From sequence record NC_007603.1: 46,219 nucleotides of DNA, one strand, 5' to 3'. The notes below the pieces were generated by a model, which was not told the DNA's origin, searched no databases, and saw only the letters and a program-made list of their open reading frames with translations. The stretch is from Escherichia phage Rtp. A program made the position numbers and the translations under genes. Below, piece after piece: positions 4,893 through 44,202 of the stretch; positions within the stretch are counted from its first letter, which is position 1, and every line of letters starts with the position of its first letter.

Positions 4893-4969
4893 GCCCCGCT
4901 AGCTCAATTGGATAGAGCAACGACCTTCTAAGTCGTAGGTTACTGGTTCGAATCCAGTGCGGAGCGCCA
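4893..4969 (+). tRNA. tRNA-Arg (anticodon UCU)
   Basis: Hand-folded cloverleaf: acceptor GCCCCGC/GCGGAGC (one C-A mismatch), D-arm GCTC-AATTGGATA-GAGC, anticodon arm ACGAC-CTTCTAA-GTCGT, T-arm ACTGG-TTCGAAT-CCAGT, encoded CCA. Confidence 0.7.
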
Positions 4970-39258: not shown

Positions 39259-40395
39259 ATGGCAACTGCAAAGATTACTAACGAGCAGCTTCTTGAAGAA
39301 CTAGCAAACGGCATGACAAACAAGGCAATCGCAGAGAAGTACGGAATGAACATTCGCAACGTTGAATTGCGTCGTAGTAAACTGGCGAAGAGTGGAGAAT
39401 TGCACGGAAACCCGGGCATCAAGAAGTTAGTTCCTGACGGTTATTTGGTTAAGGGAACCTCCACGATGATTGATGCTGATGGTAACGAAAAGCTGCGCTG
39501 GGTTAAAACATCTGTAGATAATGAGAGACTTGAGGTTTTAATGGAGCAAGCTCGCGAGGCATTTTGCTCTGATTTGCCAAAGGCTACTCCATCTGAATCA
39601 CCTAATGTTAACTTTGATGATAACACGCTTGCGATGTATCCAGTTTTTGATTTGCACATTGGGGCGATGGCTCACAAACATGAGTGCGGCGAAAACTATG
39701 ATACAGCAACAGCAGAGAAGGTTATGAATGGGTTCTTTGACTACGCTGTAGATAAGGCGCCAAACTCTAAGAATGCTGTATTGGTATTGGGTGGCGATTT
39801 CCTGCATTACGACTCCCTGGAGGCTAAAACCCCGGCCTCAGGCCATATCTTAGATTCTGACAGTCGTTACGCCAAGATTGTTTATGTTGCAATCCGCTCG
39901 GTCAGGCGTGCAATTTCTCGAATGATGGAAAAGCATCAAGTTATTGATATTAAAGTAATAAGTGGGAATCACGACGAGGCAGGAATGGTTTGGCTCCGCG
40001 CTGCACTTGCTGCGTTTTATGAAGATGAGCCTCGCGTAAATGTTGATATTAGCCCTGCCGCAATGATGATGACCAGCTTTGGAACTACGCTTATTGGATA
40101 CACTCACGGGCACCAAATGCGGAAAGCCGATACTAGACTAACTGTTATGGCAACTGATTTTCGTAAGTTATTTGGTCAAAGTGAGTATGTTTACACACAT
40201 AGTGGCCACTGGCATTCGCAGAAGATTACAGAAACAAACTTGGGAATTGATGAGGTTCATGGTCAGCTTGGAAGTCCAGACGCATACTCTGCTAATGGTG
40301 GGTGGCGCTCACAAAGACAGGCTGCGGTAATCGTCTACCACAAAGAATTTGGTGAAGTTGGACGATTTATTTGCCGCCCTAAAATGTTTAGCTAA
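39259..40395 (+). CDS. metallophosphoesterase (calcineurin-like) with N-terminal HTH-like region
   Basis: DLHIG (DxH), GGDFLHYD (GDxxD) and GNHDE motifs in canonical order. Confidence 0.6.
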   Translation: MATAKITNEQLLEELANGMTNKAIAEKYGMNIRNVELRRSKLAKSGELHGNPGIKKLVPDGYLVKGTSTMIDADGNEKLRWVKTSVDNERLEVLMEQAREAFCSDLPKATPSESPNVNFDDNTLAMYPVFDLHIGAMAHKHECGENYDTATAEKVMNGFFDYAVDKAPNSKNAVLVLGGDFLHYDSLEAKTPASGHILDSDSRYAKIVYVAIRSVRRAISRMMEKHQVIDIKVISGNHDEAGMVWLRAALAAFYEDEPRVNVDISPAAMMMTSFGTTLIGYTHGHQMRKADTRLTVMATDFRKLFGQSEYVYTHSGHWHSQKITETNLGIDEVHGQLGSPDAYSANGGWRSQRQAAVIVYHKEFGEVGRFICRPKMFS

Positions 40396-40468: not shown

Positions 40469-40642
40469 ATGGTTAAATTGTTTTGCATTAAGAACGCATC
40501 TAAGACACTTCCGTTCACTGAGGATAAGCCATATAGCGGTGAGTATCAGGGTGACGGATACTACAAAATTTATGGTGACGACATGACGTGTATTCTTGCG
40601 CCGATTGATGGTTCGCTTGTTGAATTTATTATCGAAGATTAG
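40469..40642 (+). CDS. small ORF (57 aa)
   Basis: ATG 40469 with SD ACGAGGA; followed by a strong terminator. Confidence 0.4.
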   Translation: MVKLFCIKNASKTLPFTEDKPYSGEYQGDGYYKIYGDDMTCILAPIDGSLVEFIIED

Positions 40643-40668
40643 CGCATCTAAAACATAGTGTTACGCAC

Positions 40669-40694
40669 GGGGAGCCTTTTGGCTCCCCTTTTTT
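40669..40694 (+). terminator. rho-independent terminator
   Basis: GGGGAGCC-TTTT-GGCTCCCC plus T6. Confidence 0.7.
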
Positions 40695-40772
40695 ATGCTT
40701 CCTTTCCAAGCAGGGCCAATGTATCATTCTTTTACTAACTTAAACATTGACAAATAGATAAAGGTGGGTCAC

Positions 40773-40988
40773 ATGAGGGAAGTAATTAACGCCGCTACGG
40801 CATCAACTGGCGGTGCTGCGGTAACTGGCGCGGCAACTGGTCAAATGACTATAGCAATAATCAGCCTTATAGCTCTAATCATTTTTGGAGCTTGGGGTGC
40901 TTACTGGAAGTATAAGGATAGCCAGGCGATTCGACGAGCGCTTGAATCAGGGGATTTAAAGACGGCAATCAAGATAAGGAGCAAGTAA
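40773..40988 (+). CDS. holin (pinholin-like, two hydrophobic segments)
   Basis: 71 aa; Gly/Ala-rich first hydrophobic segment then IAIISLIALIIFGAWGAYW, charged C-terminus; immediately upstream of the endolysin. Confidence 0.55.
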   Translation: MREVINAATASTGGAAVTGAATGQMTIAIISLIALIIFGAWGAYWKYKDSQAIRRALESGDLKTAIKIRSK

Positions 40989-41474
40989 ATGAAGCAGAAG
41001 CTAGTGGTTGGTGCTGCGACCGCTGCGGCAATATACATCGCAGCGCCGCTTATTGAGCTTGTTGAAGGCGTAGAGAATAAGCCATACATGGATATTGCTG
41101 GAATCCCTACAGTTTGCGCCGGCGTTACTGGCCCTGACGTGGTTTGGGGAAAGAATTACAGCAATAGAGAGTGCCGAAAACTTCTAGAGAAGCACATTCA
41201 GATTCATGGCAAGTATGTTGAGGATGCAGTTACCTACCCAATTGCACCTCAGACGAGAGCGGCCTTAATCAGCTTTAGCTATAACGTTGGCGGCTCCTCG
41301 ATGAGGAAATCTACGGCTGTAAGGCTAATCAACCAGGGCAAAGTGGAGCAAGGTTGTAAGGCTTTGGGTCTTTGGAATAAAGCTACCGTTAATGGCAGGA
41401 AGGTTGTGGTTAAGGGGTTGGTGAATCGCAGGAATGAGGAGATTAAGTTATGCTTAAGTGGATTGCAGCGTTAG
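40989..41474 (+). CDS. SAR endolysin (phage lysozyme, P21 R-like)
   Basis: N-terminal signal-anchor-release segment VVGAATAAAIYIAAPLI followed by a lysozyme-like catalytic region resembling P21 R as recalled. Confidence 0.75.
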   Translation: MKQKLVVGAATAAAIYIAAPLIELVEGVENKPYMDIAGIPTVCAGVTGPDVVWGKNYSNRECRKLLEKHIQIHGKYVEDAVTYPIAPQTRAALISFSYNVGGSSMRKSTAVRLINQGKVEQGCKALGLWNKATVNGRKVVVKGLVNRRNEEIKLCLSGLQR

Positions 41475-41839
41475 TAATGTGCGTAGCTTTATCTGGATGC
41501 TCAGCAACATCTGCTCTGACCGGATTAATTGGCAGTAAGCCAGAGATTAGCGCTCAAGCTGGTGCAGAAAATAATAAGGTTGGTGTTGGGTTAACGAACA
41601 AGGTTGACTCAAGTAACTCAAGTGAAGCCACGGTTAAAGATTCTAATGTTGGGTCACTGGATAGCTCGAGCGGGAAAAAGACTGCTGACAACTCGATTAA
41701 GGCCTCAACAATCACTGCCGAAAAGATTGAAATTACCAATAACGAATCATCAGCGCTTCCGTGGGTTGGAACAGGAGCTATGGGGTTGCTGGTTTTAATT
41801 CTCATGGCATTAATCTTAAGACGTAAAAAAGCCTCCTAA
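41450..41839 (+). CDS. unimolecular spanin-like lipoprotein (u-spanin)
   Basis: N-terminal lipobox LSGC plus C-terminal transmembrane segment (GLLVLILMALIL) then RRKK; position after the endolysin. Confidence 0.6.
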   Translation: MLKWIAALVMCVALSGCSATSALTGLIGSKPEISAQAGAENNKVGVGLTNKVDSSNSSEATVKDSNVGSLDSSSGKKTADNSIKASTITAEKIEITNNESSALPWVGTGAMGLLVLILMALILRRKKAS

Positions 41840-41855
41840 TGGAGGCTATATTTTT
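41825..41855. terminator. bidirectional rho-independent terminator
   Basis: A6-GCCTCC-TAAT-GGAGGC-TATATTTTT between convergent genes. Confidence 0.6.
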
Positions 41856-42189
41856 AGCTAAATAACTCGTCGTCAGTCATTGTTCCTACATTCATAATCT
41901 CTTTTATGTACTTGCTCTCATACCCGCTAAGTGCCTCGAAGTTGAAATCAAATGGCCTTTTCAAACTCCCCTTGCTAACAAACTCACCACACTTACCATC
42001 AATGTATCCAGCAGTTAACATCTTTGCGCAGAACTCCTTTGAAGCAGCACTGCAAAACTCTCTATGCGATAAACCCGATGCCTTGCTGAACCTCTCAGAG
42101 TCCTTATGTTGGTATATGAACCGCGCCAAATGCTGGCGCGTAAAGTATGAATACGACTCACAGAAGCGGTATAAATCCAAAATGAACAC
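41854..42189 (-). CDS. hypothetical protein (111 aa)
   Basis: ORF track; last gene of the leftward block. Confidence 0.5.
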   Translation of the reverse strand: MFILDLYRFCESYSYFTRQHLARFIYQHKDSERFSKASGLSHREFCSAASKEFCAKMLTAGYIDGKCGEFVSKGSLKRPFDFNFEALSGYESKYIKEIMNVGTMTDDELFS

Positions 42190-42192
42190 TTA

Positions 42193-43776
42193 TCACCCCA
42201 ATAGTCGTGGATTAACGTAAACTTTATCACCAATCAGGCACGTATAGTTTTTCTCATCAAGCATTGGCAGTAAGCGATCTTTAATCTTTGTCATTACACC
42301 AGCTTGAGCCTCAAACGGCTTAACCTTTCGAGCTGCCTCATACAATGAACGAATACCAACTACACCTTTCCCGTTCTTGCCTTGCTTGATCAGTATATCA
42401 ACCAGCTTGCTCATCTCAGCATGGTCGCCAGCGTGACCAGCAGCGTTAGCTGATGACAGATACGTCTTGCTCAGCTCCTGGAACATAATCACAGCTTCTT
42501 GCATGGTATCAAGTTCAATCTCTCTGGATTTCTGTGGACTACCGCCATTTGGGTTGAACCAGTTGCGCACAGTGTGAAGAACAGCTGCAATCCTGATGGC
42601 CTGCTTATCGAACTTACCCAACGCGCCACGTAACATTGTGTGTGAATACTTCCCGCCATCTGCAAGGTGAGGCTCCATCTCCTGACGCGCACGGTTGAGG
42701 TATTTCATCGCTGAGTTGCTCACTGTCAGCTTAACATCTTGCTCATTCATTATTTCATGAACTAAACGGAAGTAATCTGCCTTCAGCTCGCCATTAATTG
42801 GTTCGTATGTTGAGTTGCCATTCTCATCAACGAATACGCGCTCACCAAGGAATGATTTTTCACGAACCAAAAGGAAACGTTCAGATACACCGATACCACG
42901 CGCACCAGCATTCATGATGGCGTTGATTGTTTCATCCTGCGCAATTACAGAGATGCAACCCATAGCAACGAAACTCATGTTATTTTCTGCGTTGGCACGC
43001 GCGATAGATACGTTACCGGCATCCCATGCCTTAAGCACAAGTTCGCTGTTCGTTTTCTTAGAGCCATCACCATAGGTCATGCCAAGAAGTGAATTGACGC
43101 TAGTTGCTTCATCCGAGATTACAGCGAAGTTACCCTGTCGGTTGTTTATTCGCGCAAGACCTTCCGGAGTGGTATCTGACACTGGAAATACGATATCGCA
43201 CATCTTTTCCAGCTTTTCCTCTAAATCCTCTTTTTCCTCAAACAGCGCCGCCATCTCTGATGGTGACTTCTCCTGCTTCATCTCTTTTGATAATACAGAT
43301 AGTTTTGCCATGATCTTCTTGCGCTCACGCTTTCTCAATTCATTCAGTCGCTCAGTCTCAGCAATCATTGGAGCAATTGAAAGTGAGTTGATGGCTGATT
43401 TACCTGTCGATGGTGGTTGGCTTGTCACGACATAAAGCGAAGTTGGCTGCTGAGTTCCATGATACTCAACAGTAAAACGGCCCAGCATGGCAGCGGAAAT
43501 ACACCCCAGAAAGTGCATATAAGCTGAAGACTCAGGGAACTGAACAGAACGGGCAATATTGGCTGAAAGCTTACCAACAACATCAATGTCATTACCGAGT
43601 GAGATTACGGGATACTTGTCATTAGCCGCATCAATCTCGACTGGTGCTTTCCAGAATGATTGAGACTGACGATAGCCATTAGCATTAATAGCGACGCGCA
43701 GGGGTGGGAGGTTGTCTGCGGCAGCAATTGCCATAACCTGTTCAACAGATAGTTTATCTTCGTTGAAATCAAACAT
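42193..43776 (-). CDS. P-loop NTPase (putative replication / primase-associated ATPase)
   Basis: 527 aa; Walker A-like PPSTGKS; cassette promoter variant upstream; function not resolved. Confidence 0.55.
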   Translation of the reverse strand: MFDFNEDKLSVEQVMAIAAADNLPPLRVAINANGYRQSQSFWKAPVEIDAANDKYPVISLGNDIDVVGKLSANIARSVQFPESSAYMHFLGCISAAMLGRFTVEYHGTQQPTSLYVVTSQPPSTGKSAINSLSIAPMIAETERLNELRKRERKKIMAKLSVLSKEMKQEKSPSEMAALFEEKEDLEEKLEKMCDIVFPVSDTTPEGLARINNRQGNFAVISDEATSVNSLLGMTYGDGSKKTNSELVLKAWDAGNVSIARANAENNMSFVAMGCISVIAQDETINAIMNAGARGIGVSERFLLVREKSFLGERVFVDENGNSTYEPINGELKADYFRLVHEIMNEQDVKLTVSNSAMKYLNRARQEMEPHLADGGKYSHTMLRGALGKFDKQAIRIAAVLHTVRNWFNPNGGSPQKSREIELDTMQEAVIMFQELSKTYLSSANAAGHAGDHAEMSKLVDILIKQGKNGKGVVGIRSLYEAARKVKPFEAQAGVMTKIKDRLLPMLDEKNYTCLIGDKVYVNPRLLG

Positions 43777-43962: not shown

Positions 43963-44202
43963 TCATTTTTTAATCTTCATCTCCAGAATTTCATAACTTA
44001 TGTAATTATTTATCATTCCAATAAGTGATTTTGGGTATGTTTTCATATGCTTCTTGGCTGAATCTTCATCAAGATGCGCTGATATGTTGTGATAATTGTA
44101 TTCATAATCCATGCCCATTAGTACGTATATCTTATCGTGCGCATTAATGAAGTTATTTGATTTTATTTCCCCAAGCGACCAGCCCTTTCCTTTTCTAATC
44201 AT
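43963..44202 (-). CDS. hypothetical protein (79 aa)
   Basis: ORF track; ATGA coupling with the upstream gene. Confidence 0.45.
   Translation of the reverse strand: MIRKGKGWSLGEIKSNNFINAHDKIYVLMGMDYEYNYHNISAHLDEDSAKKHMKTYPKSLIGMINNYISYEILEMKIKK

Follow-up and report, generated by a model that had tools for sequence, protein, structure and literature searches.

What do the three tightly packed genes at positions 40773-41839 of Escherichia phage Rtp encode, and does their arrangement depart from the phage lysis modules already described? The stretch analysed is the 46,219-nucleotide (nt) sequence NC_007603.1, which at its full length is called the window below. An earlier note, made from the letters alone, had read the locus as a compact lysis cassette with a pinholin-like holin, an endolysin of the signal-anchor-release (SAR) type and a single-component spanin. 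We found that this interpretation is correct and that the cassette is an ordinary one, already known. In our assessment (probability about 0.88) it represents a T1-family coliphage's lysis cassette, which is gene-for-gene orthologous to genes 13, 12 and 11 of phage T1. In pairwise comparison, the holin was 59% identical to T1 gp13 (E 2e-32), both proteins having the same length of 71 amino acids (aa); the endolysin was 44% identical to T1 gp12 (E 1e-44), and the spanin 38% identical to T1 gp11 (BLASTP, E 4e-26). The plus-strand coordinates proposed for the three genes were borne out by the open reading frame (ORF) list and the sequence: the TAA of the holin gene abuts the ATG of the endolysin gene, and the end of the latter overlaps the start of the spanin gene by 25 nt.

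The same cassette was readily found in other phages. It was 94.5% identical at the nucleotide level to that of Escherichia phage RobRod40 (Drexlerviridae, Braunvirinae), in which the three genes are annotated as holin, endolysin and Rz-like spanin, and 85-91% identical to those of dozens of further coliphages. With window positions 40600-41900 as the query, 80 phage records matched with at least 80% coverage and 80-95% nucleotide identity. The genes are annotated as holin, (SAR) endolysin and unimolecular spanin (u-spanin) in phage OzMSK and the BASEL "Piccard" phages. Nothing sets the cassette apart from the T1-type arrangement already known, and GenBank contains annotated copies that are nearly identical. 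Since at least 2015, the cassettes of T1-like phages have been presented as made up of a pinholin, a SAR endolysin and a u-spanin, with a family-wide survey in 2018 (PMC6139136; also PMC13164509). The value of the present assignment lies chiefly in correct annotation, the locus being a textbook T1-type lysis module.

The surroundings of the cassette agree with this assignment. The gene order exonuclease, DUF7244, holin, endolysin, spanin was the same in the window, RobRod40 and T1, and Eremina et al. (2026, PMC13164509) reported an exonuclease-SH3-holin-endolysin-spanin module for 508 out of 522 Drexlerviridae genomes. T1 belongs to the same phage family as the window, and the two share the DNA repair exonuclease and DUF7244 genes upstream, a convergent helicase unit downstream, terminator-like hairpins at both ends of the cassette and an identical LSGC lipobox in the spanin. 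They differ in that T1 is a member of the Tunavirinae, whereas the window is Braunvirinae-like, and in the overlap of the endolysin and spanin genes, which is 1 nt in T1 but 25 nt in the window. In addition, an HNH endonuclease gene lies between the exonuclease and DUF7244 genes of T1 and is absent from the window, and the identity between spanin and gp11, at 38-39%, falls just below the published 40% threshold, family membership running through intermediates. Given the homology to T1 and the syntenic flanking genes, the third protein is a divergent gp11 orthologue and not a mere look-alike.

The assignment of the third gene product as a predicted unimolecular spanin of the T1 gp11 family is supported by features at both of its ends. 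At the N-terminus, the signal MLKWIAALVMCVA-LSGC carries the lipobox cysteine, Cys17, followed by Ser18 at position +2. At the C-terminus, the segment WVGTGAMGLLVLILMALIL (residues 105-123) had a Kyte-Doolittle (KD) hydropathy of 2.36 and a summed Hessa dG of -2.06, and is followed by the tail RRKKAS; the best 18-residue window reached a KD of 2.54, with four Lys/Arg residues next to it. No Cys occurs between Cys17 and this transmembrane segment. Both elements described by the earlier note, the LSGC lipobox and the C-terminal transmembrane segment on which it had made its reading depend, were thus present, and they are kept among the relatives of the protein. Among 1.84 billion representative proteins, searched exhaustively, only 45 relatives were found, and in 36 of the 36 aligned full-length members the lipobox Cys was invariant and the C-terminal hydrophobic segment and basic tail were retained. 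The spanin matched PHROG 1804 (Rz-like spanin, 4.4e-50) and had no significant match in the copies of Pfam and NCBIfam searched, the NCBIfam model spanin2_3 remaining sub-threshold with 21 bits vs a cut-off of 80. The spanin gene was the last of the lysis cassette and adjoined the endolysin gene in the window, RobRod40, OzMSK and T1.

Kongari et al. (2018) grouped spanins into families by single linkage, requiring at least 40% identity along 40% or more of the length. By this rule, the spanin and T1 gp11 fell into one 46-member component, so that the comparison with gp11 proposed by the earlier note yielded a homologue from the same cluster. The direct pair reached 39% over 123 aa in the clustering, just short of 40%; the linking member P0192 was 50% identical to the spanin over 92 aa and 79% identical to T1 gp11. 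The AlphaFold2 model of the spanin had a mean predicted local distance difference test score (pLDDT) of 56.7 and contained a signal helix, a short helix at residues 20-27 and a transmembrane helix at residues 104-126, the last with a mean pLDDT of 85 over residues 111-120 and of 65-68 in the flanking blocks. The periplasmic part was modelled as coil over residues 29-98, with a pLDDT of 41-49 over residues 31-90.

Compared with Rz/Rz1 of phage lambda, the spanin has the same predicted role and the same overall topology, a link from the inner to the outer membrane through the periplasm. As quoted in Kongari et al. 2018 (PMC6139136), T1 gp11 can stand in functionally for Rz/Rz1, complementing a lambda RzRz1 defect; its LSGC lipobox is functional, and the activity depends on it. 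The two systems differ in that the spanin is one polypeptide rather than two, lacks periplasmic Cys and predicted coiled-coil helices, and shows no sequence similarity to the lambda proteins past the sub-threshold spanin2_3 match.

The endolysin is a GH24 lysozyme, matching Phage_lysozyme of Pfam (PF00959, 5.7e-34) and a PHROG endolysin family (1.3e-47). Its best matches in the PDB were RrrD of E. coli (4zpu, 4.7e-27) and R21 (3hde, 2.2e-26; also 3hdf). We take 3hde and 3hdf, which the PDB titles only "Lysozyme", to be the full-length and the truncated form of R21 of phage 21, and R21 to be a SAR endolysin. Alignment to the full-length chains began at residue 8 of the query, within its hydrophobic N-terminal segment, and the catalytic triad E26-x8-D35-x5-T41 aligned to E35, D44 and T50 of R21. 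The N-terminus consists of MKQK, with basic residues K2 and K4, and a 20-residue hydrophobic stretch (residues 5-24) of which 45% is Gly/Ala/Ser/Thr; the catalytic Glu26 lies two residues past this segment. Cys residues were found at positions 43, 62, 123 and 155 only, and none in residues 1-24. Since the SAR segment lacks Cys, the enzyme is assigned to the R21 (refolding) type and not to the P1 Lyz (disulfide) type. Lyz of phage P1 is likewise a GH24 lysozyme that begins with a SAR segment, and its activation depends on a Cys within that segment, which is the feature missing from the window endolysin. With R21, in contrast, the homology extends to the SAR segment and also takes in the E-D-T triad, and neither protein has a Cys in the SAR segment. 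An R21-type SAR endolysin, predicted to be released from the membrane upon depolarisation, is therefore a supported assignment.

The holin matched PHROG 2877 (holin, E 1.2e-37) and no significant family in the copies of Pfam and NCBIfam searched; homologues carry a precomputed PF27028.1 tag, an entry absent from that Pfam copy. The protein has an uncharged stretch of 42 residues (residues 4-45), within which two parts can be told apart. The N-segment (residues 4-23) is 80% Gly/Ala/Ser/Thr, with a KD of 0.84 and a Hessa value of 0.37 per residue, and residues 25-45 form one strong transmembrane segment that is followed by a conserved basic cytoplasmic tail. Among 43 homologues, mean column identity was 0.70 in the N-segment vs 0.54 in the transmembrane core; Gly14 and Gly23 were invariant, the motif AATGQ (residues 20-24) varied hardly at all, and small residues occupied positions 15, 19 and 23 in 84-100% of the sequences. 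The AlphaFold2 model, which a hairpin would fit, placed a helix at residues 2-18 and, after a break, another at residues 23-58, and the putative loop between the helices comprises ~2-4 residues.

In several respects this layout resembles that of S21, the pinholin of phage 21: the size is similar (71 aa vs 68 aa), and in both proteins a weakly hydrophobic Gly/Ala-rich first segment is followed by a stronger second one and a basic C-tail. On the same scales, the first transmembrane domain (TMD1) of S21, computed from a sequence 100% identical to that of the phage 21 record, was 55% Gly/Ala/Ser/Thr, with a KD of about 0.5 (0.52) and a Hessa value of 0.39 per residue. The holin differs from S21 in lacking detectable similarity, membership of PF04971 and a dual-start antiholin, and in its much shorter putative inter-helix loop. 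A further difference between the cassettes lies in the spanin, which is unimolecular in the window and a two-component Rz/Rz1 in phage 21.

A dual-start holin/antiholin arrangement was considered and rejected: the only upstream in-frame start, GTG at 40764, is itself part of the Shine-Dalgarno sequence, and a TAG at 40755-40757 closes the frame. In 39 of the 43 homologues, Met occurred among the first ten residues at position 1 only. The holins of OzMSK (L003 1620-1889) and of the relatives represented by proteins P0121, P0124 and P0129 are called 16-20 codons longer, at 87-91 aa, and P0121 has a Val opposite the start Met of the window holin, suggesting a GTG start; miscalled start codons probably account for the long forms. 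The holin tail (residues 46-71; window 40908-40985) was unusually well conserved, D49, S50, A56, G60 and A65 being invariant among the 43 homologues, which hints at a specific interaction or a possible regulatory role.

Lysis specialists annotate the T1-family holin as a class II pinholin (including PMC6139136). We lean towards the same view, namely a class II pinholin-like, two-segment holin whose N-segment would serve as a releasable first transmembrane helix, and we regard the pinholin-like label as the weakest and least secure part of the earlier reading. Several observations weigh against the reading of the cassette, and most of them fall on this protein. No 19-residue window within holin residues 4-23 reached a KD of 1.0, and the windows with a KD of at least 1.0 ran into the strong transmembrane segment; the GenBank record of T1 gives its holin a "single transmembrane domain"; and the N-segment helix of the AlphaFold2 model was of low confidence (pLDDT 53-58). 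BLASTP against S21-68 gave an E of 5.0, that is, no detectable similarity, and the holin did not match the Pfam family Phage_holin_2_1 (PF04971), in which S21 itself scored 8.6e-36. The pinholin label of T1-family phages is bioinformatic and rests on prediction across the family, as is the SAR label of their endolysins. On the side of the spanin, the periplasmic domain of the T1 gp11 family is predicted to be beta-rich, with a short helix and then beta strands (Kongari et al. 2018, PMC6139136), which the low-confidence AlphaFold2 coil did not reproduce. Lastly, the stretch from the upstream terminator to the holin start yielded no consensus sigma-70 promoter. The holin could also be a single-pass protein (N-out, C-in), with a Gly/Ala/Thr-rich N-terminus that is periplasmic from the start and a hole that is possibly large, and thus no pinholin. 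The confinement of clear transmembrane hydropathy to residues 25-45, the T1 annotation, the lack of S21 homology, of a match to its Pfam family and of a dual-start motif, the very short loop and the uncertain N-helix all speak for such a protein. Even so, we consider it rather unlikely. On the same scales, the N-segment equals or exceeds the proven SAR TMD1 of S21 in hydrophobicity; it is conserved above the transmembrane core and shows a small-xxx-small-xxx-small pattern typical of membrane helix packing; the uncharged stretch is as long as a hairpin would be; and the groups that work on lysis annotate T1-like phages with a class II pinholin. As with the S21 prototype, the holin gene is paired with that of a SAR endolysin, here the adjacent one of R21 type. 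Less probable still is the proposal that the T1-family holin represents a mechanistically distinct, uncharacterised class and no true pinholin, a view suggested by the absent S21 similarity, the unusually conserved N-segment and amphipathic tail and the missing dual start, and coupled with DUF7244 as a genuine fourth lysis factor. Of the earlier claim, the Gly/Ala-rich N-segment stood, being real, conserved and SAR-like, whereas kinship with S21 was not detected and only one transmembrane segment is unambiguous. The cautious wording "pinholin-like" is appropriate, "pinholin" itself being an inference here.

For the other two proteins, the competing explanations fared worse. The N-terminus of the endolysin, with its basic n-region (K2, K4) and hydrophobic stretch, also has the layout of a Sec signal peptide, and several small-residue pairs that suit the -3/-1 rule, which we applied manually, occur at residues 10-14; an ordinary cleavable signal peptide would yield a soluble periplasmic enzyme controlled in some other way. 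These pairs, however, sit inside the hydrophobic core and lack a c-region, and the sole candidate past the core is G27|V28, where cleavage would cost the enzyme its catalytic Glu26, which makes a cleaved signal peptide implausible. Three further features point in the same direction: Pro20 and the catalytic Glu directly follow the hydrophobic core, the N-terminal segment aligns with the SAR domain that R21 retains in its full-length crystal structure 3hde, and T1 gp12 has the same N-terminal layout. We judge the cleavable signal very unlikely, and the claim that the endolysin starts with a SAR segment holds on the R21 alignment, the intact triad and the cleavage-site check. The third gene could in principle encode a small phage lipoprotein of another kind, for instance a Cor/Llp-like superinfection exclusion protein. 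T1-like phages do have small lipoproteins that serve other functions, Cor being an example (PMC13164509), and some records label the third protein just hypothetical or putative membrane protein. This explanation is scarcely credible in view of the homology to T1 gp11, which was shown to replace lambda Rz/Rz1 (PMC6139136), and of the C-terminal transmembrane segment and basic tail in all aligned relatives, which are not a trait of Cor-type lipoproteins, together with the fixed last place of the gene in the lysis cassette.

How the three proteins may act together can be outlined by joining the genes, homologies and sequence features observed here to the biology of the family, from which all the dynamic steps, the topology of the holin and the size of its hole are taken. 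Before lysis, the holin would accumulate harmlessly in the inner membrane, while the endolysin would be exported by the Sec system and kept tethered to the membrane, inactive, by its uncleaved, weakly hydrophobic SAR segment. The spanin would likewise be exported and lipidated on Cys17. Because the +2 residue is Ser and not Asp, its N-terminus is predicted to be sorted to the outer membrane, and its C-terminal segment would stay in the inner membrane; with its ends in the two membranes, one polypeptide would therefore span the periplasm through the peptidoglycan mesh. At the programmed time the holin would trigger and the membrane would be depolarised, whereupon the SAR segment would leave the bilayer and the lysozyme would refold to its active form, as R21 does, and degrade the wall. 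No disulfide switch is expected, as the SAR segment lacks Cys. Loss of the wall would set the spanin free, and it would then disrupt the outer membrane, probably through its fusion with the inner one. Any depolarising holin, whether two-segment or single-pass, would be expected to trigger the SAR endolysin alike.

The positions of the genes and expression signals are listed below.

Features of the lysis cassette and its upstream neighbours in the window (RBS, ribosome-binding site)
Feature	Position	Strand	Product length	RBS	Remarks
Holin gene	40773-40988	+	71 aa	AAAGGTGG, 5 nt before ATG	orthologue of T1 gp13
Endolysin gene	40989-41474	+	161 aa	TAAGGAG, 7 nt upstream	GH24, orthologue of T1 gp12
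Spanin gene	41450-41839	+	129 aa	GAGGAG, 8 nt upstream	T1 gp11 family
DUF7244 gene	40469-40642	+	57 aa		SH3 clan, orthologue of T1 gp14
Exonuclease gene	39259-40395				upstream of DUF7244 gene
Intrinsic-terminator-like hairpin	40669-40694	+			hairpin 40669-40688; 8-bp stem, 7 G-C pairs, T6 tail
Bidirectional terminator-like hairpin	41830-41855	both			hairpin 41830-41847; overlaps spanin stop codon

The window shares the upstream hairpin, which sits between the DUF7244 and holin genes, with RobRod40 and OzMSK; at the same position in T1 (T1 record L004 6782-6808) lies a hairpin of other sequence, which is unannotated in the T1 record. At the position of the downstream hairpin, the T1 record annotates a terminator (43966-43988), and a hairpin scan of T1 agreed with it. 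In the window, this downstream hairpin has T-runs on both strands and is probably a shared bidirectional terminator, at which the cassette ends from one side and the convergent minus-strand genes (41854-43776) from the other. Hidden embedded ORFs, o-spanin-like (outer-membrane spanin subunit) or other, were also considered, and the alternative-frame candidates at 41095-41187 and 41604-41798 were discarded as having neither lipobox nor transmembrane features.

The protein encoded upstream of this hairpin matched Pfam PF23896 (DUF7244, SH3 clan) with 8.5e-29 and was 44% identical to T1 gp14. DUF7244 has been described as an SH3 domain that stands alone and as a lysis-module "shell" component, found in 188 of 522 Drexlerviridae genomes (Eremina et al. 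2026, PMC13164509). The strong terminator-like hairpin before the holin gene, together with the lack of an export signal visible in the DUF7244 sequence, argues for caution about its proposed accessory lysis role. The hairpin between the two genes, in the window as in T1, weakens but does not exclude the idea that the DUF7244 gene is co-expressed with the cassette.

Beyond the cassette, the nearest phage records to window positions 1-25000 belonged to the same group and covered 66-79% of this part at 86-90% identity. Given that both the cassette and the first 25 kb match the same phage group, the window reads as essentially the whole genome of a T1-family siphophage (Drexlerviridae, Braunvirinae-like), and by these comparisons the ~46-kb sequence is probably a new species-level Braunvirinae-like genome. 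Two records assigned to other hosts, PP134917.1 (Pseudomonas phage PsgS01F) and MG065688.1 (Campylobacter phage A110b), were ~88% identical to the coliphage cassette. T1-like phages are notorious contaminants, and for this reason the host assignments of both records look doubtful. Elsewhere in the window, a tRNA-Arg gene with the anticodon TCT was detected on the plus strand at 4893-4969 (ARAGORN; Rfam, 65 bits).

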